From Gemmatimonadales bacterium (GTDB taxonomy: Bacteria > Gemmatimonadota > Gemmatimonadetes > Gemmatimonadales > GWC2-71-9), in assembly GCA_039934355.1 (NCBI GenBank), contig JBDTMI010000001.1, positions 931-64,930 of the forward strand: a stretch of 64,000 bases of DNA, written 5' to 3'. The translations under genes and the position numbers were made by a program. A model generated the notes under the pieces. The model worked only from the letters and a program-made list of their open reading frames with translations, was not told the origin of the DNA and did not search any database. This document shows, piece by piece, positions 38,963 through 60,514 of the stretch; within the stretch, counting starts at the first letter, position 1, and every line of letters begins with the position of its first letter.

Positions 38963-39254
38963 GTGAATCCGGGTAGGCGGGAGGAGTGTTGGGCCGCTCG
39001 GCAGTGCGGCCTGACACACGGTAGCCTCGGTGACGACCGCGCCGCAATGCCGCCACACAACTGGGGAACGGGAGCGCGCTTCTGGGACGACCAATCCCAC
39101 AACCGGACACCGCGGCGCAGGGGCGAGCCGGGTCACGCCGTTCAACTCCGTACGTGTCAACGGCTTCAGGCTTGAGCGCCACGCGCGGGGCAGGCATGCT
39201 TCTTTCCTTGTCAACGGCGCGAGACCTGAGGCACCCAGATCATCCGAGGACGTC

Positions 39255-40499
39255 GTGGATATAGCCCGTGAGCCCAAACCGAAGGGTCGGCGCTTCCTCT
39301 ATATGGGGGGCGGCCTGGTCGCGTTGGTTCTGGCGACGGTCGCGATTTCGCGCCTGCGACCTGCGGCCCCGTCGGTGGAGCGCGGCACGCTCTGGATGGA
39401 CACGGTGGTCACCGGAGCGATGACACGCGAAGTGCGCGGCCCTGGCACGCTGGTGCCGGAGCAGGTCCGGTGGGTGTCCGCGGTGACGGCCGGACGGGTG
39501 GAGCGGAAGCTGGTGCAGCCCGGTGTGCGGGTGACGGCGAGCACCATCCTGCTCGAACTGAGCAATCCCGACGTGCAGATCCAGCTGCTCCAGGCCGAGC
39601 GCCAGCTCACTGACGCGCAGGCCCAGGTTGTTTCGCTCAAGACCTCGCTGGAGACGCAACGCCTGACGCAGTCGAGCCTCGTCGCCCAGATCCGCACCGA
39701 ATATCGCGATGCGATCCGCCGCGCGGCGGCCGATTCCGAGCTCGCCGCCGAGGACCTCATTTCCCGCGGCGACTACGATCGCTCCAAAGACAAGGCGACG
39801 GAGCTGATCGAGCGGCTGCAGCTGGAGCAGCAGCGCCTCACCCTCTACACCGAAAACATCCACTCGCAGCTGGAGGTCCAGGAGGCGCAGGTGGGACGGC
39901 TCCGCGCGGTGGCGGACTTCCAGCGCAATCTGGTCGACGCGATGGTGGTCCGCGCCGGTGCCGATGGGGTGCTCCAGGAGTTGCCGCTCGAGGTCGGACA
40001 GTGGGCCACGTCGGGCGTGACGCTGGCGAAGGTGGTCCAGCCGGAAAAGCTCAAGGCCGTCCTTCGTATCCCCGAGACGCAGGCCAAGGATCTCAGCCTT
40101 GGGCAGGCGGCCTCGGTCGATACCCGGAACGGCCTCGCCGCCGGCCATGTCATGCGGATCGATCCCGCTTCCCAGAATGGCACAGTGACGGTGGATATCG
40201 CCCTTGAGGGCGCGCTGCCGAAGGGCGCCCGCCCCGACCTGAGTGTGGATGGGACCATCGAGATCGAGCGTCTGGGCGAGGTGATCTCGATGGGCCGCCC
40301 GGCCTACGGTCAGGCCAACAGTGCGGTTGGCATTTTCCGAATGGTGCCCGGCACCGATGAGGCTGAGCGGGTGCGGGTCGATCTGGGCCGCAGCTCGGTC
40401 AACCGGATCGAGGTGGTTCGGGGACTCAAGCCGGGCGACGTGGTCATCCTTTCCGACATGAGCCGGTGGGACGCGGTGGAGCGGGTCCGGGTCCGGTGA
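39255..40499 (+). CDS. HlyD/MacA-type periplasmic adaptor (membrane fusion protein)
   Basis: GTG at 39255 ((M)DIAREPKPKGRRFLYMGGGLVALVLATVAI). It has a lipoyl-like segment, a long coiled-coil hairpin (QLLQAERQLTDAQAQV...EQQRLTLY) and beta-barrel segments. Confidence 0.85.
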   Translation: MDIAREPKPKGRRFLYMGGGLVALVLATVAISRLRPAAPSVERGTLWMDTVVTGAMTREVRGPGTLVPEQVRWVSAVTAGRVERKLVQPGVRVTASTILLELSNPDVQIQLLQAERQLTDAQAQVVSLKTSLETQRLTQSSLVAQIRTEYRDAIRRAAADSELAAEDLISRGDYDRSKDKATELIERLQLEQQRLTLYTENIHSQLEVQEAQVGRLRAVADFQRNLVDAMVVRAGADGVLQELPLEVGQWATSGVTLAKVVQPEKLKAVLRIPETQAKDLSLGQAASVDTRNGLAAGHVMRIDPASQNGTVTVDIALEGALPKGARPDLSVDGTIEIERLGEVISMGRPAYGQANSAVGIFRMVPGTDEAERVRVDLGRSSVNRIEVVRGLKPGDVVILSDMSRWDAVERVRVR

Positions 40500-40514
40500 G
40501 GCACGACCGGCGCG
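40499..40514 (+). promoter_or_regulatory. Candidate sigma-54 promoter upstream of the ATPase/permease array
   Basis: AGGCACG-ACCG-GCGCG. The -24 GGCACG is perfect and the -12 GC sits at the correct spacing (GG 40500-01, GC 40512-13), but TT is replaced by GC. It lies about 85 nt upstream of ATG 40597. Confidence 0.3.
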
Positions 40515-40596
40515 AACGCATTCCCCCGTCACGGCTCAACGTGTTTCCTGACGTTTCTCGTGCAGCAGCGATCCCGCATTCCTCCAGAGAGATCCC

Positions 40597-41307
40597 ATGA
40601 CGACGAACGGTTCGGCGCTGATCCGACTTGAAGGCCTCAAGAAGGTCTTCCTCACCGAGGAAGTGGAGACCCACGCCCTCGAGGAGATTCACCTGGAAAT
40701 CAAGCGGGGCGAGTACGTCGCGATCGCCGGGCCCTCCGGTTGTGGCAAGACCACGCTCCTCTCCCTGCTCGGCCTGCTCGACACGCCGACCAGCGGGCAG
40801 TACTGGCTTGACGGCAAACCGGTGGCCCAGCTCTCCGCGGCGGAGCGCGCCCGGATCAGGAACAAGGAGATCGGCTTCATCTTCCAGGCCTTCAACCTGA
40901 TCGGCGACCTGACGGTCTACGAGAATGTCGAGCTGCCGCTCACCTATCGCGGGCTTGGTGCGGCGGACCGGAAGCAGCGGGTGATGAACGCGCTCGAACG
41001 CGTCGGCATGGCGCACCGGGTGAAGCACTATCCGGCCCAGCTCTCCGGCGGTCAGCAGCAGCGCGTCGCGGTGGCACGCGCCGTCGCGGGAGAGCCGCTG
41101 ATCCTCCTCGCCGACGAACCGACCGGCAACCTCGATTCCACCAACGGCGAAGCCGTGATGGACCTGCTGCAGCAACTGCACCAGGCGGGGGCGACCGTGT
41201 GCATGGTGACCCACGATCCCCGCTACGCGCGCAATGCACAGCGCGCCATTCACCTGTTCGACGGCCGGGTCGTGGAAGATCGTTCGCTGGAGCTCGCGGG
41301 CGCCTGA
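40597..41307 (+). CDS. ABC transporter ATP-binding protein (MacB/LolD-type NBD), copy 1
   Basis: Walker A GPSGCGKTTLL, Q-loop FIFQAF, signature LSGGQQQRVAVARA, Walker B/D-loop [13 protein letters not shown]-loop VTHD. Confidence 0.9.
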   Translation: MTTNGSALIRLEGLKKVFLTEEVETHALEEIHLEIKRGEYVAIAGPSGCGKTTLLSLLGLLDTPTSGQYWLDGKPVAQLSAAERARIRNKEIGFIFQAFNLIGDLTVYENVELPLTYRGLGAADRKQRVMNALERVGMAHRVKHYPAQLSGGQQQRVAVARAVAGEPLILLADEPTGNLDSTNGEAVMDLLQQLHQAGATVCMVTHDPRYARNAQRAIHLFDGRVVEDRSLELAGA

Positions 41308-41337
41308 GTTTCGCATCATCTCCCCGAGGCCACCCGT

Positions 41338-43797
41338 ATGCGAGTGTTCCTTGCCGACCTGCGCCACGCCCTTCGCACGCTGACCCACAGTCCCGGGTAC
41401 GCGAGCGTCGCCATTCTCTCGCTGGCCCTGGGGGTTGCGGGCACGGCGACGGTGTTCACCGTGGTCAACGCGCTCCTGTTCAAGCCGCTGCCGGTCGGGG
41501 AGCCGGCGCGTACGGTGAGTCTCTACACCAGCGACTACAGCGGCCCGCTCTTCGGCACCTCGAGCTACCCTGACCTCCTCGCGTTCCGTCAGGGCATCCC
41601 CGCGCTGGATCACATCGTCGGCATGGGGCTTCAGCAGACCAGCCTGACGATCGGCGCCGAGCCGGTCCGGGTCACGCTAGCCATGGTCTCGGAGGATCAT
41701 TTCAGCGGTCTGGGCATTCCGCTCGCGCTGGGGCGCGGGTTTTCGGTCGAGGAGAACCAGATCGGTGGCGCGGTCACCGTCGTGGTGCTCAGTCATGCGC
41801 TCTGGACCTCGCGATTCCACCGGCGGCCGGAGGTCGTGGGCCAGGCGGCCCTGGTCGGCGGCCGGCCCTTCACCGTCATCGGCGTCGCCCGGCCGGGCTT
41901 TAGCGGCTTGATGCGCGGGCTGGGTTTGGATGGATGGGTGCCACTCGCCGCCGCCCCACTGCTGCGCGCCGACCCGAGCCTGCTCACCAACCGGGGCGAC
42001 CGGGGCCTGATGGTCATCGGGCACCTCGCGCCCGGCGCCACGCTGGCCCAGGCGCGAGCGCAGGCGGACGGGCTGTCCCGTCAGCTCCACGCGGACTTTG
42101 CCGGCGCCTGGACCGATCGGCAGGACCACGGGCGGACGATCACCCTCCTGCCGGAGGGCGAGAGCCGGCTCTTTCCTGGCGCGCGCGGCCCGGTGCTCGG
42201 GGTCAGCGCCCTCCTGTTCCTCGTGGTGCTCGCGGTCCTGCTGATCGCCTGCGGCAACGTGGCCAGCCTCTTCCTGGCCCGCGCGATGGCCCGCCAGCGC
42301 GAGGTCGCGGTCCGTCTGGCGCTGGGCGCGAGTCGCGGCCGCGTGGTGCGTCAGCTGGTGACTGAAAGCGTCGTGCTCGCCACGCTCGGCGGCGTGTTAG
42401 GCGGCATGCTCTCGTTCTGGCTGGCCGGGCTCCTCCTCTCCGCCCACCTGCCAATTCCGGTCACCCTCGCGCTCAATCTCGCCCCCGATCTCCGGGTGCT
42501 CGGCTTCGCCCTGCTGCTGTCGATCGTGACCGGCCTGCTGGTCGGTCTCGCGCCGGCGCTGCAGGCGTCGCGGCCCGAGCTGCTCTCCGCGCTCAAGGAC
42601 AATACCGGCGGGTCGCTCTCCCCCCGCTCGCGCCTGCGCGGCGGCTTCGTCATTGGGCAGGCGGCGCTTTCCATCCTGCTGCTCGTCATGGCCGGCCTGT
42701 TTCTCCGTAGCCTGCAGCGCGCCTCGTCGATCGACCTGGGGTTCGGCGCGCGAAATGGTCTGGTGCTGGCGACCGACCTGGGACTCGCCGCGTATGACGA
42801 GGCCCGGGTGCAGCGCTTCCAGCACGAGCTCCTGCACCGGTCCCGCACCCTGCCCGGTGTAACGGCGGCGGGTCTCACCGGTGAGCTGCCGCTCTCGCTT
42901 TTCGGCAACCGCTCCGGACTGACCATCGAAGGATACGTGCCACAGGACCGGGAGAATCTGGAGGTCGGTCGGGGGGCGATCAGCCCCGGGTATCTCGAGG
43001 CGCTTGAGCTCCCGGTGCTCCGCGGTCGGGCGTTCACGGATCAGGATCGGACCGACGCGCCCCTGGTCGCGCTGGTCAGCGAGGCCTTTGCGCGACGATA
43101 CTGGCCCGGGCTGGATCCCATCGGCCATCGAGTAAGCACGAGCGGCGAGGAGGGTCCCTGGCGAGAGGTCGTGGGCGTCGTGCACGACGCAAAGTATTCC
43201 ACGCTGGGCGAAGAGCTCATGCCCTACTTCTATCTGCCGGTCGCCCAGATCAACGTGGAGCGCACGTCGCTGCTGCTGCGCACCCATGGCGTTCCGGCGG
43301 CGCTTATCGCGAGCGTGCGAGCGCTGGTCCACGATCTCGATCCTGCGTTGCCGGTCGAAGCGATCGGCACCTTCCAGGACCATCTCTCCTTCGCGCTGCT
43401 TCCGGCCCGGGCCGGCGGTCTGGCCCTCGGGGCCTTCGGGCTGCTCGGGCTGCTGCTGGCGAGTCTCGGCGTCTACGGCGTGGTCGCCTACGGCGTCGCG
43501 CAGCGGCGCCGGGAGATCGGGATTCGGATCGCCCTCGGCGCGAAGGGGGGAGCGGTGGTGCGCATGATGGTCCGCGACGGCCTGCGCCTGGTGTCGATCG
43601 GGCTGGGAATCGGGTTGCTGCTCGCGGGTGTCTCTGGCTTCCTCGTTCGCGGCCTGCTGTACGGTCTCACGCCGCTGGACCCGGTGGCGTTCATAGCGGG
43701 ACCTCTCGTGTTTGGACTTGTCGCGTTGGGCGCCAGCTACCTGCCGGCCCGGCGCGCCACCCGGATCGACCCAATGGCGGCGCTCCGCGCGGAATAG
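41338..43797 (+). CDS. ADOP-family duplicated FtsX/MacB-type permease, copy 1
   Basis: 819 aa. N-terminus MRVFLADLRHALRTLTHSPGYASVAILSLALGVAG. Two 4-TM FtsX halves, each preceded by a large periplasmic domain. C-terminus YLPARRATRIDPMAALRAE. Confidence 0.9.
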   Translation: MRVFLADLRHALRTLTHSPGYASVAILSLALGVAGTATVFTVVNALLFKPLPVGEPARTVSLYTSDYSGPLFGTSSYPDLLAFRQGIPALDHIVGMGLQQTSLTIGAEPVRVTLAMVSEDHFSGLGIPLALGRGFSVEENQIGGAVTVVVLSHALWTSRFHRRPEVVGQAALVGGRPFTVIGVARPGFSGLMRGLGLDGWVPLAAAPLLRADPSLLTNRGDRGLMVIGHLAPGATLAQARAQADGLSRQLHADFAGAWTDRQDHGRTITLLPEGESRLFPGARGPVLGVSALLFLVVLAVLLIACGNVASLFLARAMARQREVAVRLALGASRGRVVRQLVTESVVLATLGGVLGGMLSFWLAGLLLSAHLPIPVTLALNLAPDLRVLGFALLLSIVTGLLVGLAPALQASRPELLSALKDNTGGSLSPRSRLRGGFVIGQAALSILLLVMAGLFLRSLQRASSIDLGFGARNGLVLATDLGLAAYDEARVQRFQHELLHRSRTLPGVTAAGLTGELPLSLFGNRSGLTIEGYVPQDRENLEVGRGAISPGYLEALELPVLRGRAFTDQDRTDAPLVALVSEAFARRYWPGLDPIGHRVSTSGEEGPWREVVGVVHDAKYSTLGEELMPYFYLPVAQINVERTSLLLRTHGVPAALIASVRALVHDLDPALPVEAIGTFQDHLSFALLPARAGGLALGAFGLLGLLLASLGVYGVVAYGVAQRRREIGIRIALGAKGGAVVRMMVRDGLRLVSIGLGIGLLLAGVSGFLVRGLLYGLTPLDPVAFIAGPLVFGLVALGASYLPARRATRIDPMAALRAE

Positions 43798-43851
43798 CAG
43801 TCGAAGTAGTCGGGTTGGCGCTGCTCCGTCCTCACTCTTCGGGGAGACACC

Positions 43852-46290: not shown

Positions 46291-46371
46291 ATCCCTCCCC
46301 GCATTCTCAGGGCAAACCGCCGGTTCGTCCCCGCCCGACCCGGGAACTACTCAACGCCTGGACGCGCATTC

Positions 46372-48822
46372 ATGAGTTCACTGTTCGCTGATGTCCGCGC
46401 CGCGTGGCGCTCGGTCCGTCGCGCGCCGCAATTCTCCGTGATCGCCGCGTTGACCCTCGCGGTCGGCATCGGTGCCGTCACGACGCTCACCAGCATGCTC
46501 GACATGCTGCTGCGGCGTCCGCCAGCGGATGTCACGGCGCCGGCGCAGGTGGCCCGGCTGTTCTTCCATCACCGGAACCCGCAGTTCGGCGACTGGCGCA
46601 ACTCGGTGGTGAGCTACCCCGACTACACCGACCTCAGGCAGGCAAAGAGCTTCTCGGCCGTCACCGCGGTCTATAGCGGGTCGGCCTCGATGGGGCGTGG
46701 TGCCGACGCCGCCCCAGTCGACCTGGCCGCAGTGACGGGAAGCTATTTCCCGCTGCTGGGCGCCAGCCCGCTGCTGGGCCGGCTGCTGGGCCCCGACGAC
46801 GACCGGCTCGATGCCGGCGTCCCGGTGGTGGTGCTGAGCGAACGGTTGTGGCGTACCCGGTTTGGTGCCGGCCGGACCATCCTGGGACAGAGCATCGCAC
46901 TGGACGACCAGACCTACACCGTCGTCGGGGTGACCCGACCCGCATTTGACGGAGGTGAATACACGGCACCGGACCTCTGGGTGCCATTCACCGGCGTCGC
47001 GCACCGGATGCAGGGCAACGACGAGTATCGCACCGACCGGGGATGGTACTTCATCTCGCTGCTGGGACGGCTGGCGCCCGGTGCCACGCGGGAAGGGGCC
47101 GCCGCCGAGGCGACCAGCCTGATCCGCGCAGGCCGCAGCGATTCCGCCACGGCAAACGGGTTTCAGGATGTCCAGCTCGGGCCCGTCATGGAGGCGGCCG
47201 GCCCGGATCACAGCGGCACCGCGAATCTGGCGCGCTGGCTCAGCGCCATGTCGCTCCTGGTGCTGCTGATCGCCTGCGCCAACGTGGCCAACCTCATGCT
47301 CGCCCGCGGCCTGACGCGCGGCCGGGAACTCGCTATCCGCAAGGCACTCGGCGCGGGCCAGCGCCGCCTCGTCCGGCAGCTCTTCCTCGAGGGACTGCTG
47401 ATTTCGCTGATGGCCGGTTGCGTGGGGCTGCTGGTGGCAGCCTGGGGTGGTGGAGTGCTGCGCCACTACGTTCTCCCCGCCGCACTGGCGGAGCGATTCA
47501 CCACCGACGGGCGGGTCTTCGCGATCGCGGCAGGGGCCACGCTGATCGCCGCACTTCTAGCCAGCCTGGTGCCGGCGCTGCAGGTGACGGGGAGTGATCT
47601 GACACCGGTCCTGAAGGAAGGTGGGCGCGGCAGCGGATTTCGGCGCTCGCGGGTGCGGTCCGGCCTGGTGGTGGCCCAGGTCGCGCTGAGCGTGCTGTTG
47701 GTGATTGGCGCCGGGCTCTTCGCCCGCAGCCTCCGCAACATCCTCGGCATCGATGTCGGCTACGACCGCGACCAGGTGCTGATGGTGAGCGCCGATCCCG
47801 CCTCGGTGGGATTCACCGGCCCGCAGACGGGGCAGGCCTTCGATGCCATGCTCGCGGCGGCGCGCGCCCATCCGGGGGTTGTCTCGGGGGCCCTGACGTA
47901 TGGTGAACCCTTTGGCTGGAGCATGGCGCAGGGGCTGCGGATCGTGGGGCGGGATTCGCTCCCGCGGATGTCGAGCGGAGGGCCATACATCCAGCGCACC
48001 ACGGCGGAGTTCTTCCAGACGATGGGGATCGCGTTGCAGCGGGGACGCGGCTTCACGGAGGCGGACCGCCGCGAGCACCCTGCCGTCGCCGTTATCGGTG
48101 CCACCATGGCGAAACGGTTCTTTCCCGATGAGGATCCGATCGGCCAGTGTCTTCTCCTGGGCAAGGAGGCGATGGACTGCACTGCGATCATCGGGATCGC
48201 CGAGGACGGGGTGCGTTACTCGCCGCGGGAGGAGCCGCAGGCGATTTACTATGTGCCCCTTTCGCTGCCTGGGGTCGAGACCCGCCACCTGACGCTCTTC
48301 CTTCGCTCCCGCGGCCCCGCGGCGGCCCTCGCGGCGGAGGTGCGGGGTGTGCTGCAGTCCGCTGCGCCAGGGCTGCCCTATGTCGAGGTGCGGCCGCTGA
48401 ACCAGGTGCTGGAACCGGCGTACCGGGATTTCCGCCTTGGCGCCATGCTCTTCACGCTCTATGCGTTCGTGGCACTGCTGCTGGCGGCGCTCGGATTGTA
48501 CAGCGTGCTCGCGTATGCGGTGCGGGGACGGACCCAGGAACTCGGGGTGCGCCTCGCGCTGGGTGCCGCACCGAGCAGCCTGGTGCGGCTGGTGGTATCC
48601 GACGGTGTGCGACTCACGCTGCTGGGCACGGCGCTCGGCATCCTCGGCGCGCTGGCGGCGGGGAGGGCGCTCGCCAGTCTGCTGTATGGTGTACCGGCCT
48701 GGGATCCGCTCACCCTCGGACTCGCCACCGCGACGGTCCTGCTGACAGCGCTTTGCGCCAGTCTACTACCGGCGCGTCGGGCCACGCGCATCGACCCCAT
48801 GACCGCGCTCCGATCCGAATAG
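46372..48822 (+). CDS. ADOP-family duplicated FtsX/MacB-type permease, copy 3
   Basis: 816 aa. N-terminus MSSLFADVRAAWRSVRRAPQFSVIAALTLAVGIGA. C-terminus LLPARRATRIDPMTALRSE. Confidence 0.9.
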   Translation: MSSLFADVRAAWRSVRRAPQFSVIAALTLAVGIGAVTTLTSMLDMLLRRPPADVTAPAQVARLFFHHRNPQFGDWRNSVVSYPDYTDLRQAKSFSAVTAVYSGSASMGRGADAAPVDLAAVTGSYFPLLGASPLLGRLLGPDDDRLDAGVPVVVLSERLWRTRFGAGRTILGQSIALDDQTYTVVGVTRPAFDGGEYTAPDLWVPFTGVAHRMQGNDEYRTDRGWYFISLLGRLAPGATREGAAAEATSLIRAGRSDSATANGFQDVQLGPVMEAAGPDHSGTANLARWLSAMSLLVLLIACANVANLMLARGLTRGRELAIRKALGAGQRRLVRQLFLEGLLISLMAGCVGLLVAAWGGGVLRHYVLPAALAERFTTDGRVFAIAAGATLIAALLASLVPALQVTGSDLTPVLKEGGRGSGFRRSRVRSGLVVAQVALSVLLVIGAGLFARSLRNILGIDVGYDRDQVLMVSADPASVGFTGPQTGQAFDAMLAAARAHPGVVSGALTYGEPFGWSMAQGLRIVGRDSLPRMSSGGPYIQRTTAEFFQTMGIALQRGRGFTEADRREHPAVAVIGATMAKRFFPDEDPIGQCLLLGKEAMDCTAIIGIAEDGVRYSPREEPQAIYYVPLSLPGVETRHLTLFLRSRGPAAALAAEVRGVLQSAAPGLPYVEVRPLNQVLEPAYRDFRLGAMLFTLYAFVALLLAALGLYSVLAYAVRGRTQELGVRLALGAAPSSLVRLVVSDGVRLTLLGTALGILGALAAGRALASLLYGVPAWDPLTLGLATATVLLTALCASLLPARRATRIDPMTALRSE

Positions 48823-48870
48823 AGGCAACCCACGGGTTGCGTGCGTTCACCTCCCTCCGACACGAGGCCG

Positions 48871-51333
48871 ATGCTCATGACCGCGCTCATCGACGATCTG
48901 CGGATCGCCTTACGCACATTGCGGCGGGCCCCCGGCTTTGCCGCCGCCTGTGTGCTGACGTTCGCGGTCGGCATCGGCGCCACCACCTCGCTCTTCTCGG
49001 TGGTTGACGGGGTGATCCTCCGGCCGCTCCCTTTCGCCAACCCGGACGACCTCTACTTCTTCTCGGAGCAGGGCCGCGATGGCGCCCAACGCCTCCCGTC
49101 GTACCCCAATTTTTCCGACTACCGCACGGAGGCGACGGCCTTCGCCGCACTGGGGTATGTCGTTGGACAGTCGGCCATTCTCCGTACCGGGGACGGCGTC
49201 ACCAACTTCGCCCTGGGCAAGGTCTCCGACGGTTTCTTCCAGACGCTGGCGGTGGCACCGCTCCTCGGGAGAGGGCTCCTGCCGGAAGACGAGCGACCCT
49301 CCGCCGCCCCGGCGGCGGTACTGACCTACAGCTTCTGGCGATCCCAATTCGCTGGCGATCCGACGATCATCGGCCGGACCGTCACGACCGCCGAGGGCGG
49401 GCTGACGGTCGTCGGCGTCCTGCCGCCCGGGGTGGTCTTCCCCATCTGGGCCCAGATCTATTCGCCGCTGTCCGCCGGCGCACCCCCCGCAGCAATGCAG
49501 TGGCGGAATCTGCATGTAGACGGCGGGATGATCGCGCGCCTGGCCCCAGGTGCCGATCGGGCCCAGGCCGAGGCGCAGCTCGCCGCGCTCAGCCACCGGA
49601 TGGCCGAAGCCTATCCTGCCGACAACGCCGGATTCAGCGCGCTGCTCACGCCACTCCGCGATACCGTGATCAATGGCAACGTGCGGACGCCGCTGCTGTT
49701 CCTGCTCGCCGCGACCGGGGTTGTGCTGCTCATCGCGTGCGTCAATGTCGCCAACCTGTTCCTTGCCCGTCTGGCGCGCCGGACCCATGAACTGGCGCTC
49801 CGCTCGGCCCTCGGCGCGGAACGGAGCCGGCTGGTGACGCAGCTGCTGGCGGAAGCGGTGCTGCTGGCCAGCGTCGGCGCGGTGATCGGGCTGGTGTGCG
49901 CCGCCCTCCTGATCCGACTCCTGGCGACGGGCGATTCCAGCGTCGCGATCGCCGTTGGCAGCTTCGTGCCGCGACTCGAGGAGTTGCGAATGGATGGCCG
50001 CATCGTGGCGCTCGCCGTCAGCCTCACGCTCGCCAGTGCGCTGGCCGCGGGCCTGGTGCCGGCGTGGACCGGCAGTCGCACCGATCTCGCCAGGGTGCTC
50101 AAGCAGGGGGGCGCACGGAACAGCGGCGGATCAGGAACCGCCGGCCGCCGGCTGTTGATCGGCGCACAGAGCGGGCTCGCGCTGGCGCTGCTCATTGGGG
50201 CGGGGTTGCTCCTGAACAGTCTTTGGCGCGTGACCAGGGTGGATCGTGGTTTCGAGAGCGCAGGGCTGCTGACGGCGCACATCTTCCCGTCGCCGCGGTA
50301 CCAGGCGCCGGACAGCAACCTCCCGGAGCTGTATCGCCGCCTGGTCGATGCGGTCAGCGCGGTGCCCGGGGTGCGTGGGGTCGGACTGGTGAACCATCTC
50401 CCGATGGGCGGAGCGTGGACGGGCAGCCGAGTGAGCATTGATGGCGCGCCGATCGAGCCGGGGCGTGAGCTCACCGTCGGTGTCCGCTCCGTCAATCAAC
50501 CCTACCTCGACGTGATGCGGATTCCGCTGCGGCGCGGCCGGTGGTTCTCCCCGGGTGACATGCGCGAATCGCTCACCGGGGTCGTCATCAACCAGGCGAT
50601 GGCGGATAAGTACTGGCCCGGCGCCGATCCCGTCGGGCGTCGGGTTGCGTTTTTCAAGAGCGCCGCCGGCCGGGCTGATTTCGGACAGCCGCTCTCGGCG
50701 GAGGTCATCGGCGTCGTGGGCGACGTGCGGCAGTTCGGCCTGGAGCAGGCCTCGGATGCCGCGCTCTACGTCCCCTTCACGGCGGCGCCCTGGGGGCACA
50801 CGTCATTTACGATCCGCACCACTGGCGATCCGGCGCTATTGATCGAGCCGGTGCGACGCGCGCTCGTCGCGGCCGAGCCCGACCTGGTCGTCGATGGGCT
50901 GACCCCCATGGATCTGGTGGTGTCGGGCACGCTGGTGACCCGCAACTTCCTGCTGCTCCTGCTCGGCGGCTTCGCGCTGACCGCGCTGGTGCTGGCCGGC
51001 ATCGGTCTCTATGGCGTGCTCAGCCATCTGGTTGGCGAACGGACCAGGGAGATCGGGATTCGCCGCGCGATTGGTGCCAGCGAGGGCCGCATTGTGCGAC
51101 AGATTGTGAGCGACGGGATGATGGCGGTGACCGGCGGCGCGGTGGCCGGACTGACGCTCGCATGGGGCGTCGGCCGGCTACTCGCCAGCCAGCTCTTCGG
51201 GGTGACGCCGACCGATCCATTCACCTGGCTCGCGACCACGCTGGTGCTGTTGATTACCGGGCTCGTGGCCTGCTATGGACCGGCCCGACGGGCCGCGCGC
51301 ATCGATCCGCTCACCGCACTCCGGAGTGAATGA
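48871..51333 (+). CDS. ADOP-family duplicated FtsX/MacB-type permease, copy 4
   Basis: ATG at 48871 ([37 protein letters not shown]) inside track ORF 48841..51333. C-terminus [19 protein letters not shown]. Confidence 0.9.
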
Positions 51334-53750
51334 TGGACACACTGCTGAAGGATCTCGTGTACGCCCTTCGCACCCTCCGGCGCAATCCGGGTTTCACGGC
51401 GGTGACCGTGTTGACGCTCGCACTGGGGATTGGCGCGAACACTGCGGTGTTCAGCGTCTTGTACAGTGTCATGCTCAAGCCGCTGCCGTATCCGGAGCCG
51501 GAGCGACTGGTCCGACTCACGCAACGGGGCGATGGCTACGAGGGGGAGCAGTCCCTCACCTACTCCACTTTCCAGTACATCTCCGCGCACCCGGCCGGAC
51601 TGGAGGCATCGGCGGTCACCGCTTCGGTCGGCTTCAACATCGTCGCTCCCGGGGGCGCAGTGCGCGCAGCCGGCATGCGGGTCTCTCGGGACTACCTCCG
51701 CACGCTCGGGATCAGCCCGGCCATGGGCCGCGACTTTGTCACTGAGGAAGACCAGCCGGGCGGCGCCAACGCCGTGATCCTGAGCCATGGATTCTGGCAG
51801 CGCGCCTTCGGCGGGGACCCTCGTGTGCTCGGGCGAAGCGTTTCCCTCGATGGCGCCCCCTACCAGGTGGTCGGGATCATGCCGGCCGACTTCCACGTGA
51901 CTCCGGCGGTGGAGGCCTGGTCGACCATCGCCCAGGTGGCGAACACGATCGGCAACGGCGCCAATCTCCAATTCGTGGGCCGACTCGCTCCCGACGTCAC
52001 GCTGGCGGAAGCGCGGGCGCGGTGGCTGCCGACCGCGTTGGAGCTGCCGCGAGCCTTCCCGGGGAATTTTGATCCGGTGAACCGGATCGAGCTTGCCTCC
52101 GCACTGGGAGTCACGATGCAGGCGGTGTCCGGCCCCATGAAACTGCTGGCCGGCGCGATCGCCTTCGTGCTCCTGATCGCCTGTGCCAACGTGACCAGCC
52201 TGGTCCTCGGCCGGGGACTGGTCCGCAACCGGGAACTGGCGCTGCGTCAGGCGCTCGGCGCGAGCCGCGCCCGGCTGATACGGCAACTCTTCACCGAGAG
52301 CATTCTGCTCGGATTGATCGGTGGCGCCCTCGGGCTCCTCCTCGCCACCTGGGGCGTGCATCTGCTGGTCAGCGTTCTCCCCGGTGACCTCCCCCGCGGC
52401 GAGGACGTCCGTATCGATGGCGCAGCGCTGGGCTTCACCCTTGGTCTGTCACTCCTGGTCGGCATCGTGGTCGGCCTGCTCCCCGCCTGGCACGCGCGAG
52501 TCGGCCTGCGCGGCGGAGCACGCATCGAGGGATCCTCTCGCAGCACCAGCGGCTCGAGCCACACCCGGATGCGCAACGCGCTGGTGATCGGTGAACTCGC
52601 CCTGGCCCTGGTGCTGCTCACCGGCGCGGGATTGCTGATCCGCACCTTTGCAAACCTCGTGGCGACCGATCCCGGGTTCGAGCCGAAGCAGGTGCTCGCT
52701 GCCGAGATCTGGTTGACTGGAACCCGCTATGCGACTCCCGCCGCCACCAGCGATTTCTACGACCGGCTCACCACCGAGTTGGCGGGGGTTCCCGGGGTGG
52801 TGCGCGCCGGCGTGGTCGAAGCCGGGCTTCCGCTCGAGCGTGGAGGCAACCTCGCGGTGGTACTCGATGGTGCGCGCCTGAAAGGCACGATCGATTATCG
52901 CAGCATTACGCCCGGCTACTTCGACGTCCTCGGCGTGTCGCTGCGTCAGGGACGGGGCGTCGCGGTCACCGACGTCGCCGGCGGAGAGCCAGTGGTCGTC
53001 GTGAACGAATCGTTCGCCGCTCACTTCCTCGGCGGTGGCGGCGCGGCGCTCAATCGCCAGGTGTCCGTCAGCCATGACCAGTTGGCGCTGCGCCGGGTCG
53101 TTGGTGTCGTAGCCGATGTCCGCTCGTTTGTCGGCCTGCCGGCCCCACCGACAGTGTTCCTCCCTTCGGCTCAGACCCCGACCGAGTTGACCCGGCTGTT
53201 GAGCACCTGGTATCCGATCCATGTGGTGCTCCAGACCCGGAATGACCCCGCCCGGCTGCAGGAGGCGCTGCGCAGCACGATTCATCGGGTGGATCCCCAG
53301 GTTCCCGTGGGTCGGGTGCGGCCGCTTTCGGAGGTGCTCGCCGAGACGCTGTCCCTGCAACGATTCATCATGGTCGTGCTCGCCGCCTTCGCGAGCCTCG
53401 CGATGCTGCTCGCCGTGGTCGGGATCTACGGGCTGCTGTCGTACCTGGTCCTTCAGCGCACCCGCGAGATCGGAGTGCGACTGGCGCTTGGTGCACGACC
53501 GGTCGACGTGCTCCGCATGGTGCTGCGGCAGGGCCTGGTGCTCACGATGGGAGGCGTGGTCCTGGGGCTGCTCGGTGCCGCGGCGCTGACCCGGCTCCTC
53601 GCCAGCCAGCTGCACGGGGTCGGGTCGCTCGATCCCAGGACATTCATTCTCGGCGGGTCCCTTCTCGTCGTGGTCGGTCTCGTGGCGAGCGCCCTCCCGG
53701 CGGTGAGGGCGGCGCGCGTTCAGCCAATGCAGTCACTCAGGAGCGAATGA
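51330..53750 (+). CDS. ADOP-family duplicated FtsX/MacB-type permease, copy 5
   Basis: 806 aa. N-terminus [41 protein letters not shown] overlap with copy 4. C-terminus [19 protein letters not shown]. Confidence 0.9.
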
Positions 53751-56167: not shown

Positions 56168-56221
56168 GCGGCCCGGACGGACGGCCCGCATCGTTCCCGT
56201 GGTCACCCTTCGGAGCACCTG

Positions 56222-56884
<663 letters not shown>

Positions 56885-56886
56885 GT

Positions 56887-56916
56887 GCGGTCAGCATTGA
56901 GCGTTCAGCGTTCAGC
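56887..56916. repeat. Left arm of the heptamer inverted repeat
   Basis: GCGGTCAGC ATTGAGC GTTCAGC GTTCAGC. It overlaps the stop codon of the four-helix-bundle ORF. Confidence 0.8.
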
Positions 56917-57277
56917 ACTTGATCGAGGTGGTGAGACGAGCCACAAACCTTGCCAGCATCCGCTTCACTTCCACGACCGCATCGCTCACCGCCGGGAGGT
57001 CCTGCTCCACGCCGTACCCGAGGTCGGTCGCCAGGAGGAGCAGGTATTCCAGTTCAGCGGCCGATCCCAGCGAGTAGCGGAAAAATCTGGCGGCTTCGCG
57101 GTCGCTTCCCCGAGCGCTACCTTCCACAATATTGGCCGCGACCGAGACGGCCGCTCGTTCCATCTGGGAAATGAGCCCGAAACGCTCTTTCGCCGGTAGC
57201 GAACGTGTTACTCGATAGACCTCCAGCGTAGTGCGGTGCGCCTTCTGCCAGACTTTCAGTCGCCGGTATCCTTGCAT
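56912..57277 (-). CDS. Four-helix-bundle protein (TIGR02436 / 23S rRNA intervening-sequence protein family)
   Basis: 121 aa: YRRLKVWQKAHRTTLEVYRVTRSLPAKERFGLISQMERAAVSVAANIVEGSARGS...FFRYSLGSAAELEYLLLLATDLGY matches the family pattern from memory. Confidence 0.85.
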   Translation of the reverse strand: MQGYRRLKVWQKAHRTTLEVYRVTRSLPAKERFGLISQMERAAVSVAANIVEGSARGSDREAARFFRYSLGSAAELEYLLLLATDLGYGVEQDLPAVSDAVVEVKRMLARFVARLTTSIKC

Positions 57278-57386
57278 GCCTGTCCGCTTGTGTGAGAGGC
57301 GCCGAATCTGTTGGAGTCTGACATGGCCAGGGTATCATTTGACCGCACTTCGAAGCATTCCTACGCGATTCGGGGGTAGGAGGGAT

Positions 57387-57437
57387 GCTGAATGCTGAAC
57401 GCTGAACGCTGAACGCTGAATGCTGAACGCTGACCGC
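57387..57437. repeat. Right arm: tandem heptamer array
   Basis: GCTGAAT GCTGAAC GCTGAAC GCTGAAC GCTGAAT GCTGAAC GCTGACC GC. That is seven 7-nt units, the reverse complement of the left-arm units. Confidence 0.85.
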
Positions 57438-57446
57438 CCACGGCCC

Positions 57447-58808
57447 ATGCCTCTCCTTACGCCTCGCATCCTCATCGCCGACGACCAGGCCGATGTGCTT
57501 CAGGCCCTGCGGCTGCTGCTCAAGGGCGAGCATTTCACTGTCGAGACGACCAGTTCGCCCGGCGGTGTGCTGGCGGCGCTGGAGCGAAGTGATTTCGATG
57601 TCCTGCTGATGGACCTCAATTACACCCGCGACACCACCTCCGGCATCGAGGGCTTCGACCTGCTGAGCCGGATCCAGCTCCTGGACGCGATGCTGCCCGT
57701 GGTGGTGATGACGGCCTATGGGAGTGTCGAGGGCGCGGTGGAAGCCATGCGACGTGGCGCGCGCGACTATCTCGAGAAGCCGTGGGACAACACCCGGCTG
57801 GTCGCGGTGCTGAACATCCAGGTGGAGCTGGGCCGCGCGCTGCGCCGCAGCCAGCGGCTGGAGAGCGAGAACCAGATGCTGCGCCACGATGGGCTGCCGC
57901 CGCTGGTAGCGGAGTCGGCCGCCATGCGGCAGATCGCCCGCCTGATGGAAAAGGTGGCCCCGTCGGATGCGAATGCGCTGATCACCGGGGAGCACGGGGT
58001 CGGCAAGGAAGTCGCCGCGAACTGGCTGCATGCCGCCTCGCTCCGTGCCGCCCGGCCGATGATCACCGTCAACGTCGGCGGCCTCCCCGAGGGCGTGTTC
58101 GAGAGCGAACTCTTCGGCCACCTGAAAGGCGCCTTCACCGACGCCAAGGCCGACCGGATGGGCCGCTTTGAACTGGCCGACGGAGGCACCCTCTTTCTCG
58201 ACGAAATCACCAACATCACGCTGGCGCAGCAGGCGCGGCTGCTGCGGGTGCTGCAGTCGGGACAGCTCGAACGGGTCGGCAGTTCCAAGACCCGCAAGGT
58301 CGATGTGCGGGTCGTGTCGGCGACGAATGCCGACGTGCGTGCCGAAGTGGCCGCCGGCCGGTTTCGCGAGGACCTGCTGTACCGGCTCAATACCGTCGAG
58401 ATCCGCATTCCCCCGTTGCGCGACCGGCGCGAGGACCTCGCACCACTCGCGGCCCAATTCCTTTACCGCCATGCGACGCGCTACCGCAAACCGATCAGCG
58501 GCTTCCGGCCCGACGCCATGGAAGCGCTGCTGCGCTACGGCTGGCCCGGCAACGTGCGCGAACTCGAGCACACGATCGAACGCGCGGTGCTGTTGGTCGA
58601 TGGCCCCGAGATTCGCCCGGCGGATCTTTCCCTCTCACCTCCAGGTGATGCGGCGGCGGGACTCGACCAGCTCACGCTGGAGGAGGTCGAGGGCGTGCTG
58701 GTCCAGAAGGCTCTGGCCCGCACTGGCGGCAATGTCTCCGAAGCCGCCAAGGCGCTCGGTCTCTCCCGCAGCGCCATGTATCGGAGGCTGGAGCGCCATG
58801 GCCTGTGA
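57447..58808 (+). CDS. Sigma-54-dependent response regulator (NtrC family bEBP)
   Basis: ATG at 57447 (MPLLTPRILIADDQADVL...DVLLMDLNY receiver). AAA+ domain with a Walker A-like GEHGVGKE, the GAFTDA variant of the GAFTGA loop, and GGTLFLDEI. C-terminal Fis-type HTH GNVSEAAKALGLSRSAMYRRL. The track start at 57420 lies inside the repeat arm. Confidence 0.9.
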   Translation: MPLLTPRILIADDQADVLQALRLLLKGEHFTVETTSSPGGVLAALERSDFDVLLMDLNYTRDTTSGIEGFDLLSRIQLLDAMLPVVVMTAYGSVEGAVEAMRRGARDYLEKPWDNTRLVAVLNIQVELGRALRRSQRLESENQMLRHDGLPPLVAESAAMRQIARLMEKVAPSDANALITGEHGVGKEVAANWLHAASLRAARPMITVNVGGLPEGVFESELFGHLKGAFTDAKADRMGRFELADGGTLFLDEITNITLAQQARLLRVLQSGQLERVGSSKTRKVDVRVVSATNADVRAEVAAGRFREDLLYRLNTVEIRIPPLRDRREDLAPLAAQFLYRHATRYRKPISGFRPDAMEALLRYGWPGNVRELEHTIERAVLLVDGPEIRPADLSLSPPGDAAAGLDQLTLEEVEGVLVQKALARTGGNVSEAAKALGLSRSAMYRRLERHGL

Positions 58809-58826
58809 GGCGGGCCGGCGCACGGA

Positions 58827-60152
58827 ATGATGTCGCACCCGCGGCGGGTGCTTGGGCTGGCGCTGATCACCGCGCTGCCGGGGACCGCGGTCGGGCTCTG
58901 GCTGCTGTGGCACGGCGAATTCACCTCCCGGGCCCAGTGGACCGTCACCGTCGTCATCCTGCTCGTCCTGCTGTTCGGGCTGAGCGCGCTGCACGAGCGC
59001 GTCATTCGCCCGCTGCAGACCCTCTCGAACGTGCTCGCCGCCCTCCGGGAGGGCGATTACAGCCTGCGGGCCCGGCGCGCCGATGCCACGGATGATCTCG
59101 GGCTGGTCTACCTCGAGGCCAACGTGCTGGCGGAAACGCTGCGTGGGCAGCGGCTTGGCGCCCTCGAGGCGGTGGCACTCCTCCGCACCGTCATGGCGGA
59201 ACTCGATGCGGCGATCTTCGCCTTCGACGCGGACGGTACGTTGCGGCTGGTGAACCGGGGCGGCGAACGCTTCGTGCACCACCCCGGCGACCGGTTGCTC
59301 GGACGCACCGCCGCCGAGCTGGGCCTCGCCGAATGTCTCGCCGGGGAGACGCCGAGGGTATTGGAGCGGGCCGGCGCCTCGGCGACCCGCTGGGAGCTGC
59401 GGCGCACCAGCTTCCGTCAGGATGGACGTCCCCACCAGCTGATTGTCCTGACCGACGTGAGCCGTACCCTGCAGGCCGAGGAACGGCAGGCGTGGCGCCG
59501 CCTGATCCGCGTCCTCTCGCACGAGATCAACAATTCCCTCGCACCGATTCGCTCCCTGGCGGGCACACTGCAGGGGATCCTCGAGCGCGCGCCACGGGGA
59601 GCGGACGCCGAACAGGATCTGCGTCAGGGGCTCGGGATCATCGAACAGCGGGCCGATGCCCTGGGACGATTTATGGCCGCGTACGCCCAGCTCGCCCGGC
59701 TTCCGCGGCCGCGGCTGGCCCTGGTGGTGGTCGATCAGTGGGTGCGGCGGGTCGTCACGCTGGATCAGCGCCTGCCACTCCGCGTCATTCCCGGTCCGGA
59801 TCTCAGCGTCACCGCCGATGGTGACCAGCTCGACCAGCTGCTCATCAACCTCGTTCGCAACGCGGCGGACGCCGTCGCCGGCACGGCGGGGCTGGTGCGG
59901 GTGGGGTGGGGCGAGGTGCGCGGTGGCGTCGAGTTGTGGGTCGAGGACGACGGACCCGGGCTCGCGGAGACGGCAAATCTGTTCGTTCCCTTTTATACCA
60001 CCAAGCCGGGTGGGTCGGGAATCGGGCTCGCGCTGTCGCGGCAGATCGCGGAAGCGCATGGCGGCGAACTGTGGCTGGAGAACCGGACGGACGCGACCGG
60101 GTGCCGGGCGCGGTTCTGGCTGCCGAGCGGGATTCGGGGGGCCGCCCCGTGA
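58827..60152 (+). CDS. Sensor histidine kinase (2 TM with about a 10-aa external loop, HAMP, PAS, HisKA, HATPase)
   Basis: TM1 VLGLALITALPGTAVGLWLLW, loop HGEFTSRAQW, TM2 TVTVVILLVLLFGLSAL. H-box LSHEINNSLAPI. G-boxes DDGPGL and GSGIGLAL. Confidence 0.9.
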   Translation: MMSHPRRVLGLALITALPGTAVGLWLLWHGEFTSRAQWTVTVVILLVLLFGLSALHERVIRPLQTLSNVLAALREGDYSLRARRADATDDLGLVYLEANVLAETLRGQRLGALEAVALLRTVMAELDAAIFAFDADGTLRLVNRGGERFVHHPGDRLLGRTAAELGLAECLAGETPRVLERAGASATRWELRRTSFRQDGRPHQLIVLTDVSRTLQAEERQAWRRLIRVLSHEINNSLAPIRSLAGTLQGILERAPRGADAEQDLRQGLGIIEQRADALGRFMAAYAQLARLPRPRLALVVVDQWVRRVVTLDQRLPLRVIPGPDLSVTADGDQLDQLLINLVRNAADAVAGTAGLVRVGWGEVRGGVELWVEDDGPGLAETANLFVPFYTTKPGGSGIGLALSRQIAEAHGGELWLENRTDATGCRARFWLPSGIRGAAP

Positions 60153-60256: not shown

Positions 60257-60514
60257 GCGGCGTTCGAGACGCCCCTGCCTCCCCGCACGCGACGCTCCTG
60301 ACGCGCCGAACTCCCCTGATCACCGGACGCTCCGGGGCACGTACAATGCTGTGCACACTGTCCTATTCTCGGCCTCTGATCGCTGTTGCGGCCCGGTTTG
60401 ACACCGGTAGTAGCCGCCGGTACGTTCGAGAGGATTATTTCTCACCAAATTCAGGTCCCCTTGGCTGAATCTGCCGTATCGCGGAGAGGCGTCCGCTCCG
60501 TCCAGCTCGCCAGA

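Follow-up and report, generated by a model that had tools for sequence, protein, structure and literature searches.

Organization of the locus

The locus described here lies on a 64,000-nucleotide stretch of DNA from a Gemmatimonadales bacterium (contig JBDTMI010000001.1), where positions 39255-60152 encode six tandem permeases of the ADOP family together with one periplasmic adaptor, two ATPases and a two-component regulatory system. Throughout, the window refers to the whole 64,000-nucleotide stretch, the block to the part under study, and L-numbers to the loci with which it was compared. By open reading frame (ORF) listing and translation, the plus-strand gene order begins with a membrane-anchored periplasmic adaptor, a membrane fusion protein with a MacA-like fold (39255-40499; 414 amino acids from a GTG start, in an ORF that opens at 39030), followed by NBD1, a stand-alone ABC ATPase or nucleotide-binding domain (NBD) of the MacB/LolD/DarD type (40597-41307; 236 amino acids). 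The six permeases come next: P1 (41338-43797; 819 amino acids), P2 (43852-46290; 812), P3 (46372-48822; 816), P4 (48877-51333; 818), P5 (51330-53750; 806) and P6 (53747-56167; 806, or 805 from the second ATG). P2 and P6 represent two "core" types, while P4 and P5 are accessory cassettes. The array is closed by NBD2, a second and distinct stand-alone ABC ATPase (56222-56884; 220 amino acids), and beyond it lie an NtrC-type response regulator or bacterial enhancer-binding protein, hereafter the activator (57447-58808; first ATG of the ORF at 57420), and a sensor histidine kinase (58827-60152) with PAS, HisKA and HATPase_c domains by Pfam. Every gene named in the original prediction is found on the plus strand where it was placed. 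The description of the block as co-directional applies to these genes and not to the block as a whole, since a minus-strand gene for a protein of 121 amino acids sits between NBD2 and the activator.

The G+C content at third codon positions is 0.81-0.86 in each gene of the block, in DNA of 68% G+C, so all of these genes can be taken as genuine coding regions. Three gene starts are fixed by identical deposited proteins, namely those of the 414-residue adaptor, the 818-residue P4 and the 805-residue P6. The permeases, initially put at 806-830 amino acids, measure 806-819, with P4 most likely starting at ATG 48877 within an ORF that opens with a GTG at 48841. From the adaptor to NBD2, the successive intergenic gaps are 97, 30, 54, 81, 18 (54 with the corrected P4 start), -4, -4 and 54 bp; NBD1 thus ends 30 bp upstream of P1 and NBD2 begins 54 bp downstream of P6. 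The predicted ATGA overlaps at P4/P5 and P5/P6 are real by the ORF coordinates. A single transcript from the adaptor to NBD2 would fit both the short gaps (-4 to 97 bp) and the absence of any terminator-like site between 39400 and 58400. The rest of the window contains no additional ADOP, and no additional adaptor or NBD of this type. The 535-bp gap between NBD2 and the activator ORF is occupied by the minus-strand gene and a pair of inverted repeat arrays, and the pump genes and the regulator genes therefore most likely form separate transcription units.

The six permeases

All six permeases exceed the curated NCBIfam cut-off of 622.3 bits for the ADOP family, TIGR03434, scoring 824 (P1), 956 (P2), 733 (P3), 819 (P4), 824 (P5) and 963 bits (P6), and each carries two MacB_PCD and two FtsX stretches in a single chain of about 800 residues by Pfam. 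P4, in its 818-residue form, is identical to the deposited protein P0121, and P6 to P0001 from a Gemmatimonadales metagenome-assembled genome (MAG). To our knowledge, TIGR03434 was originally described as an "orphan" family, meaning that an ABC ATPase gene is neither fused nor adjacent, and as restricted to Acidobacteria. Neither description holds here: NBD1 and NBD2 flank the array, as their counterparts do in 12 related loci, and the ADOPs of the window are from Gemmatimonadales, with other matches in Opitutia, Limisphaerales and further groups. The family has also been reported in Bacteroidota (PMC3914696).

P6 was modeled with AlphaFold2 from 53 sequences, giving a predicted local distance difference test (pLDDT) score of 82.7 and a predicted template modeling score of 0.70. 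The model contains eight transmembrane (TM) helices (residues 20-49, 260-300, 315-351, 366-392, 408-445, 675-709, 724-760 and 769-795), with periplasmic domains after TM1 and TM5 and coupling helices at 302-310 and 711-719. It follows the plan of a type VII unit (TM, periplasmic domain, TM, coupling helix, TM, TM) twice over. The two halves are joined by a low-confidence, disordered cytoplasmic linker at 390-408, with no extra pair of helices between them. In a Foldseek search of the PDB, the best match is YbbP (9ge6_A, E 5.5e-21), followed by MacB, the MacB-like protein 5xu1 of S. pneumoniae, LolCDE, BceAB and YtrF; a phmmer search by sequence detects MacB, 5xu1 and YtrF only. Judged by this model, each ADOP is a complete eight-helix pseudo-dimer, fused in one chain and equipped with a pair of periplasmic domains and a pair of coupling helices. 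The original prediction of a "combinatorial" export locus is misleading on this point, because a permease that is already a self-contained pseudo-dimer offers six alternative pumps and no mixed permease dimers. The direct eight-TM fusion would be an addition to the architectures of the MacB superfamily, a review of which names no fused permease other than those with two interceding helices (PMC5985334).

Pairwise identity among the six permeases is 31-43% at the protein level, and DNA repeats among their genes are only 60-76% identical. By these measures the permeases are old paralogs, and recent tandem duplication is ruled out. Near-identical junction repeats and mobile-element signatures were sought among the permease genes and not found. 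The terminal motifs, predicted to be near-identical, are conserved in all six copies without being identical, as P5 has a V in place of the first R. When the alignment is split by region, mean identity is 28.9% in the periplasmic parts and 46.5% in the TM parts, the periplasmic value being lower in 15 of 15 pairs, which bears out the by-eye impression of strongly diverged periplasmic domains. Orthologs behave in the same manner: between P2 and its counterparts in L069 and L076, identity is 0.67-0.69 in the TM regions and 0.54-0.57 in the periplasmic ones. A rough estimate from -ln(identity) puts the ratio of periplasmic to TM rates at about 1.5 among orthologs and 1.6 among paralogs, and an extra periplasmic acceleration among paralogs was rejected on these similar values.

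Both coupling-helix motifs are retained in all six permeases. Across 201 ADOPs, the first and second motifs differ systematically: position 9 is A in 89% of the first motifs and G in 100% of the second, position 20 is R in 90% and D in 65%, and position 24 is Q in 95% and L or M in 90%, respectively. Within a single chain, therefore, the two presumptive ATPase contact sites are not equivalent.

The adaptor

The adaptor scores 95.4 bits against TIGR01730, just over the cut-off of 94.9, and also matches HlyD_3. It is identical to a deposited 414-residue protein, P0241, annotated as a HlyD family adaptor of Gemmatimonadales. In its AlphaFold2 model (pLDDT 82.6), a TM helix at residues 12-32 is followed by an alpha-hairpin made of helices 105-165 and 171-228, or about 60 and 58 residues. 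Foldseek places the MacA chains of MacAB-TolC first (9qgy_G, 5nik_D, 4dk0), then EmrA and AcrA. A MacA fold with a long alpha-hairpin, as modeled here, is a hallmark of tripartite pumps that dock to a TolC-like duct.

Two classes of ATPase

NBD1 scores 123 bits and NBD2 100 bits against ABC_tran. The best NCBIfam matches of NBD1 are DarD, MacB and LolD, all under their cut-offs, and the nearest PDB relatives of the two ATPases are 5xu1_A, the MacB NBD, MJ0796 and LolD. Walker A, the Q-loop, LSGGQ, the Walker B glutamate and the H-loop (VTHD in NBD1, VTHS in NBD2) are intact in both proteins, which are 47% identical to each other. Across loci, NBD1-type genes are 68-100% identical to the NBD1 of the window (12 loci in two phyla) and NBD2-type genes 60-91% identical to its NBD2. 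A neighbor-joining tree separates NBD1 and NBD2 into two clades, each with both phyla inside it. Nineteen positions are fixed within each class yet different between classes; the differences include FNLIG in NBD1 and YHLLD in NBD2 after the Q-loop, QQQR and QQQL after the signature motif, and a D-loop of NLD as opposed to N/S-LH.

In each related locus whose array can be seen in full, there is a single NBD1-type gene and a single NBD2-type gene, whatever the number of permeases, and in L038 and L088 the two ATPase genes stand next to each other. Because the two classes always co-occur and the two coupling-helix motifs differ systematically, the most economical and most likely reading is an NBD1-NBD2 heterodimer in which each permease half would engage one NBD.

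Related loci: a conserved chassis and a variable set of permeases

A scan of species-representative genomes with P4 gave 80 ADOP loci, mostly from Acidobacteriota MAGs, with which the proteins of the window were then compared by tblastn. No ortholog of P4 itself was found in that scan, the best match being 39%. Thirty-five of the 80 loci have a lone ADOP and 37 have three or more in tandem; an NBD1- or NBD2-type gene (at least 55% identity) occurs in 11. Lone ADOPs typically stand behind an acidobacterial PadR gene (TIGR03433, 140 bits), as seen in at least 12 loci. In L070, PadR (TIGR03433-like) genes at 2493-2825 and 12210-12572 lie inside an array flanked by adaptor and NBD genes, each directly upstream of an ADOP, so the PadR-ADOP unit and the array mode can mix.

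The layout of the window, with one NBD1-type gene, one NBD2-type gene and three to six ADOPs, recurs in at least 12 other loci of Gemmatimonadota and Acidobacteriota, and each related locus with a visible 5' end has exactly one adaptor. In Acidobacteriota, an NBD1-type gene, several ADOPs and an NBD2-type gene, together with the adaptor if the 5' end is visible, are seen in L009, L010, L016, L038 and L070. The NtrC-type regulator and the kinase are found in addition in L021, L039, L042 and L076. The Gemmatimonadales loci with this layout (L085/86, L087, L088, L089/90, L091 and L092) were found through homologs of P6, P4 and the adaptor.

Taking the window with its P1 to P6 as the reference, the Gemmatimonadales arrays can be compared gene by gene, with percentages giving identity to the window and X denoting a permease without a window ortholog. 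L092 has P1, a gene in the P2 slot (P2') and P3, with an adaptor 95%, NBD1 98% and NBD2 90% identical (the activator was left out of this comparison). L087 has P1, P2', P3 and P6, with 95% for the adaptor (over its last 56 amino acids only), 98% for NBD1 and 91% for NBD2, the activator lying outside the contig. L091 carries P1, P2, P3 and P4 (adaptor 75%, NBD1 84%, NBD2 83%, activator 82%). The order in L085/86 is X, a P6-type, a P2-type, X and X (adaptor 77%, NBD1 83%, NBD2 81%, activator 84%), and in L090 it is a P2-type, X and a P6-type followed by an HpcH-family gene (adaptor 65%, NBD1 81%, NBD2 70%, activator 73%). L095 shows an X cut by the start of the contig, then P3 and P4 (NBD2 80%, activator 81%), with the adaptor and NBD1 outside the contig.

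Where a permease of the window has an ortholog in these loci, the two share only 54-85% identity; some have none. P1 is always first in the array, at 83% in L087 and L092 and 56% in L091. A P2-type permease is present in all compared Gemmatimonadales arrays that are seen in full. The P2 of the window is 80% identical to L091_a2 and only 62% to the P2-slot gene of L087 and L092; as these identities conflict with the relationships of the chassis, they point to replacement of the P2 cassette by recombination or transfer. P3 orthologs stand at 74-75% in L087 and L092, 60% in L091 and 57% in L095. P4 is absent from L087, L092, L085 and L090, and its orthologs in L091 and L095 (54% and 68%) are the last permeases before NBD2. 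For P5, none of the compared arrays offers an ortholog above 41%. P6 orthologs are found in L087 (85%), L085 (63%) and L090 (59%), and L092 and L091 are without a P6-type permease. By blastn, the window and L087 are colinear except for 48715-53733, which covers the 3' end of P3 along with P4 and P5 and amounts to about 5 kb missing in L087.

The number of permeases, from three to six, and their identity thus vary even where NBD1 is 98-100% identical, and the changes in copy number fall at gene boundaries. Read from these alignments, the array is a set of cassettes that have been gained, lost, reordered and replaced between lineages on a stable chassis. The comparison of copy number across related genomes that was proposed at the outset accordingly gives three to six permeases on one and the same kind of chassis.

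Two side observations concern the gene content of these arrays. Acidobacteriota versions often have an extra response regulator of 405 amino acids, with a REC domain and a PP2C/SpoIIE-like phosphatase output domain, before NBD2 or before the last ADOP (L009 17795-19012, L010 20277-21494, L021 13126-14346 and L042 12658-13875). The REC domain shares 42-54% identity with the receiver of the NtrC-type activator, and the window has no such gene. In L090, the HpcH/HpaI aldolase-family gene between the last ADOP and NBD2 (12554-13339) may be a passenger or a substrate-related enzyme.

Regulator, kinase and promoter elements

The best NCBIfam matches of the activator are ZraR, PrsR, NtrC and AtoC; these full-length matches score about 356-372 bits, under the equivalog cut-offs. 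Orthologs that are 84% identical contain PF00072 (REC), PF00158 (Sigma54_activat) and PF02954 (HTH_8), and orthologs of 63-85% identity adjoin ADOP arrays in both phyla. The likelier start is ATG 57447 (MPLLTPRILIADD), because the first ATG at 57420 falls inside a heptamer repeat. The loop that contacts sigma-54 reads GAFTDA and not GAFTGA (58107-58145 of the window; activator residues ELFGHLKGAFTDA), and it does so in 12 of the 12 loci checked, comprising the window and 11 array-linked orthologs from Gemmatimonadota and Acidobacteriota. The kinase, read from its sequence, has two TM helices, a HAMP-like segment, and PAS, HisKA and HATPase domains; the outer loop between the TM helices has about nine residues, which leaves no periplasmic sensing domain. 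Kinase orthologs (58-69% identical) follow the activator in L021, L076, L088, L090 and L095.

Two conserved islands stand out in the otherwise divergent DNA upstream of the adaptor. The first is a palindrome, GGGACGACCAATCCCA (GGGAC-N6-TCCCA, 39084-39099, plus strand), which is a candidate upstream activating sequence for the activator and has a single match in the window. It occupies the same place upstream of the adaptor in L085/86, L088, L091 and L092, and in L090 with an N7 spacer; a search of 91 loci returned this spot in L085/86, L088 and L091 together with just two unrelated matches. The second is a sigma-54-like -24/-12 element, GGCATG-CTTC-TTTCC (39193-39207, plus strand), with an atypical -12 part. 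In an alignment of the upstream regions of six Gemmatimonadales loci, it is in register and invariant as GGCAYG-N4-KTNCC. The palindrome precedes it by 99-109 bp, and the adaptor start follows after 15-87 bp. The -12 part keeps T and C and is mostly without the G at -13, which is present only in L088 and L072; in L088 and the acidobacterial L072, the element is the near-canonical TGGCACG-N4-GTGC. The missing G and the altered loop of the activator may be connected. A strict sigma-54 consensus is absent upstream of the adaptor, both as TGGCAC-N5-TTGCW with at most one mismatch and in a scored search that required GG and GC.

The conserved palindrome and sigma-54-like element link the operon to the adjacent regulator, and the operon is very probably under the control of the activator through an enhancer-like site, with the palindrome at 39084-39099 as the presumed binding site. 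The promoter element also bears on the gene upstream. A minus-strand ORF at 37644-39197 (517 amino acids, with weak PD40/TolB-like repeats) crosses it, and its relatives measure 365-366 amino acids; the ORF thus appears over-extended at its 5' end, with its true start probably near 38750-38850. The intergenic region before the adaptor would then be about 400 bp and not 57 bp. For the operon, transcription is predicted to begin near 39218.

A proposed export module shared by six alternative pumps

Taken together, these observations favor a reading in which one adaptor and one pair of ATPases serve six alternative, self-contained ADOP pumps for MacB-type efflux through an unlinked outer-membrane duct. 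We give it a probability of roughly 0.6. The chassis would comprise the MacA-fold adaptor, NBD1 and NBD2 under the control of the adjacent NtrC-type activator and kinase, with the ADOP array as the cassettes. The kinase would phosphorylate the activator, which would bind the palindrome and open the sigma-54-like promoter to give one transcript through NBD2. Each permease monomer would then draw its ATPases from a common pool, most likely one NBD1 and one NBD2, each seated on one of the two non-equivalent coupling helices, and dock beneath an adaptor hexamer. The six alternative pumps would work by mechanotransmission, taking different substrates from the periplasm or the outer leaflet and expelling them through an outer-membrane channel encoded elsewhere. 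The substrates are probably diverse antimicrobials or toxic lipophilic compounds. Co-transcription, physical sharing of the module, pairing of NBD1 with NBD2, efflux and the nature of the substrates are what we infer from sequence comparison and structural models.

Comparison among loci supports the shared chassis strongly, and in this respect the originally proposed interchangeable modules on a common adaptor and ATPase set agree with the related arrays; the sharing itself, however, is suggested by gene counts alone. Several further points weigh against the reading or parts of it. As had been predicted, the block has no outer-membrane factor gene, and a Pfam scan for the OEP family finds none in the 30 further ORFs of the window either; nor does one adjoin the loci of the relatives examined. 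Having no such gene nearby is ordinary for MacAB-type pumps; tolC of E. coli lies away from macAB. None of 20 lone ADOPs with full 10-kb flanks has an NBD gene, and 27 of the 37 sampled arrays show none within view, so ADOPs might function without these ATPases. Periplasmic divergence is no greater than the family-wide difference in rate between regions. As that bias is shared by orthologs and paralogs, it is compatible with substrate specialization without being evidence for it. The sigma-54 dependence of the operon is likely without being secure, because the usual G at -13 is missing and the loop of the activator is GAFTDA. What stands of the predicted sigma-54 two-component system is the set of NtrC-type domains, the kinase and the -24-like element, while the loop and the atypical -12 part weaken the assignment. 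Both NBDs have canonical catalytic sites, and no degenerate site hints at an obligate heterodimer. LolCDE runs on two copies of one NBD although its permease halves are asymmetric. YbbAP does the same and shows that a fused type VII permease can work with two separate copies of one NBD (PMC12646458); with these two precedents, asymmetry in the permease does not demand two ATPases.

These last points lead to the best placed of the alternatives, in which NBD1 and NBD2 each form homodimers and each kind drives its own part of the permease set, such as the adaptor-proximal permeases for NBD1 and the distal ones for NBD2, with the logic of chassis and cassettes kept and no heterodimer. Besides the homodimeric ATPases of YbbP and LolCE and the complete catalytic motifs of both NBDs, a special tie between NBD2 and the last permease is suggested by loci in which the NBD2 gene overlaps or nearly abuts the stop codon of that permease (L092 17971, L085 20141 and L016 19773). 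Nevertheless, the two classes co-occur one to one whatever the number (3-6) and order of the permeases, even where the two ATPase genes are adjacent to each other, and both are kept in the three-permease arrays of L090 and L092. In addition, the class-specific changes in the D-loop and beside the signature motif affect elements of the dimer interface. We therefore consider separate homodimers unlikely.

A second alternative would restrict the chassis to the core P2- and P6-type permeases, the other ADOPs being ATP-independent orphans that are parked in the array and co-regulated with it, or else are in the course of being lost. It draws on the fact that only the P2- and P6-types are common to the window, L085, L087 and L090, on the usual lack of an ATPase gene near ADOPs, and on the PadR-ADOP units that can occur within an array, as in L070. 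It is rendered improbable by the state of the permeases themselves: all six are intact and over the family cut-off, and each retains the parts that contact NBDs in MacB-type pumps, namely the two coupling-helix motifs and a PARRA-type helix at the C terminus. Moreover, there is no universal core set, since L092 and L091 lack a P6-type, and start-stop overlaps such as those of P4/P5 and P5/P6 are typical of genes translated together within an operon.

Least probable, and very unlikely, is a non-efflux role as Lol-, FtsEX- or YbbAP-like mechanotransducers that act on envelope proteins or lipids, such as the Ig-like lipoprotein encoded after the kinase, with the adaptor as a scaffold: non-efflux type VII machines do exist (FtsEX-EnvC, LolCDE and YbbAP-TesA; PMC12646458), a large Big_1/Big_2 protein follows the kinase in the window, L089/90 and L091, and no outer-membrane factor is linked, but the MacA fold with its long hairpin is the hallmark of TolC-docking pumps, the Big protein is conserved neither beside the Acidobacteriota loci examined nor in L076, and rapid turnover of cassettes is more in keeping with a shifting range of xenobiotics or antimicrobials than with a single client of a housekeeping kind.

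Relation to known systems

The proposed set of six pumps on one adaptor and ATPase pair resembles MacAB-TolC (5NIK, 9QGY) in several parts. The adaptor shares the MacA fold, the TM anchor and the long alpha-hairpin, the permeases share FtsX-type four-TM units whose periplasmic domain is of the Porter/Sabre type, along with a coupling helix and a PARxA-type helix at the C terminus, the ATPases are nearest to the NBDs of MacB, LolD and DarD, and in neither case is an outer-membrane factor gene linked, tolC of E. coli included. The differences are that here the NBD is separate, the permease halves are fused (eight TM helices), two ATPase genes are present in place of one, and one operon holds six alternative permeases under NtrC-type control.

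YbbAP(-TesA) of E. coli (9GE6-9GE8; PMC12646458) provides the best full-length structural match to P6. Like the modeled ADOP, its permease is a single, pseudo-symmetric chain with two periplasmic domains and two coupling helices, and it binds two separate NBD subunits (PMC12646458). YbbP differs in having 10 TM helices, including two linking helices (PMC12646458), as opposed to eight helices and a short disordered linker in the ADOP model. YbbAP also has one ATPase gene (two YbbA to one YbbP), one permease, a thioesterase partner and no adaptor, compared with the two ATPase genes found here.

The BceAB-BceRS system (7TCG, 8G4C) offers a parallel for the regulatory part: there too, a two-component system is genetically tied to a type VII permease, and its kinase, with two TM helices, has hardly any loop outside the cell. 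BceB, however, has 10 TM helices and one extracellular domain, and the system has an OmpR-type regulator and no adaptor; in the present locus, the tie between kinase and permeases is one of gene neighborhood.

Sharing of an energizing unit has its own precedents. In group II ECF (energy-coupling factor) transporters and in the MsiK/MsmK systems, one energizing module is shared by many substrate-specific components, as shown biochemically. These are analogies only, since the systems in question are importers with unrelated folds, and sharing in the present locus is suggested by inference.

With respect to the ADOP family itself, of which the six permeases are members, the usual pairing is with PadR (TIGR03433), and here it is with two ATPases and an adaptor. 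Tandem ADOPs have been seen before. Genomic island 43 of Psychroflexus torquis contains a 42-kb cluster with 8-10 ADOP paralogs and transporter genes that include ATP-binding proteins (PMC3914696); the cluster is highly expressed at the protein level, and its authors suspected a role in efflux (PMC3914696). That cluster differs from the present locus in belonging to Bacteroidota and to a genomic island, and its description covers no analysis of chassis and cassettes, classes of ATPase, adaptor or regulator. An ADOP copy count has also been reported in the literature for Dyadobacter.

A literature search on ADOP arrays returned the P. torquis description only and no report of the chassis and cassette principle. 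The components are of known kinds, namely a type VII permease, a MacA-like adaptor, MacB-type NBDs and an NtrC-type two-component system. What appears unreported in the literature searched is the cross-phylum chassis (adaptor, two ATPase classes, GAFTDA activator and kinase) with its rapid turnover of cassettes, the eight-TM direct-fusion architecture, and the conserved pair of palindrome and promoter element.

Few paralogous families in soil Acidobacteriota, Gemmatimonadota and some Bacteroidota match the ADOPs in size. A genome has dozens of them, and for more than 15 years they have been annotated as "orphan" permeases without a known function or energy source. The type of locus described here gives them candidate partners in the form of two ATPase classes, a MacA-like adaptor and a pair of regulators. 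It would also introduce a principle new to type VII exporters, whereby exchangeable permeases compete for one energizing and adaptor module while the set of permeases turns over faster. If true, this would help to explain how soil bacteria handle chemically diverse antimicrobials, and it could offer a modular platform for efflux. A bolder and quite tentative extension is that the NBD1-NBD2 pair and the adaptor form a genome-wide chassis for all ADOPs, including the PadR-linked orphans, which would be served in trans, and that the array is a recombination-driven efflux "immune repertoire" whose cassettes are exchanged at conserved gene termini. Supply in trans would then explain the missing ATPases of the ADOP family.

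Flanking genes and repeat arrays

The minus-strand gene between NBD2 and the activator (56921-57283) encodes a four-helix-bundle protein of the 23S rRNA intervening sequence family (23S_rRNA_IVP; PF05635 at 116.6 bits, TIGR02436 at 110 bits) and is convergent with the pump operon. Tandem Repeats Finder places a heptamer array on either side of it: the left arm (56887-56916) has 4.3 copies of GCGTTCA, the reverse complement of the right-arm unit, and the right arm (57387-57437) has 7.3 copies of GCTGAAC and overlaps the first ATG of the activator ORF. L085/86 and L092 have this gene too, at the corresponding position and in the same orientation, and it is absent in L090, L091 and L095. In L085 (20813-21305), equivalent inverted arrays have the unit GCTGAYG where the window has GCTGAAY, so the arrangement is kept and the unit differs. 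Together with its inverted arrays, the gene may act as an insulator or terminator hairpin. A literature search on heptamer arrays around four-helix-bundle genes found no report.

Heptamer arrays occur in other intergenic regions as well. In the window they lie at 6694-6737 and 26048-26191, with the units GTGAGGA/CTCCTCA and GGGAAAT/TTTCCC. In relatives, CATTCAN repeats are found upstream of the L072 adaptor (about 4850-4940), and GGTGTCR with its complement in L088 (about 4520-4590). It seems that arrays of this kind recur between the genes of these genomes.

Downstream of the kinase, a giant Ig-like protein with Big_1/Big_2 domains is encoded on the plus strand from 60482 to 64000, where it runs off the window; whether it belongs to the system is uncertain. 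It exceeds 1170 amino acids, is rich in Ser, Thr, Ala and Val, begins with a lipoprotein-like signal (LLTTC), and occupies a single frame of high third-position G+C content from about 60480 to the end of the window. The Big_1 proteins that follow the kinase in L089/90 and L091 reach 1923 amino acids. A weak sigma-54-like site, GGGCACGTACAATGCT, lies before the Ig-like gene at 60335. Another weak sigma-54-like site, GGGCACCCGACTTGCT, is found at 34466, 36 bp upstream of an ORF of 115 amino acids (site and ORF within 34466-34864) that has no family match and has a 53%-identical counterpart in the same position in L085/86.

The wider neighborhood is syntenic with that of L090 in a rearranged form (26038-33128 of the window and 78-2843 of L090). 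In L090, a DUF1028 gene and a POT-family transporter gene are directly upstream of the adaptor. In the window, genes for cytochrome bd, a PMT_2 glycosyltransferase, a CarboxypepD_reg outer-membrane protein of 923 amino acids and the PD40-like protein separate the DUF1028 and POT genes from the adaptor.

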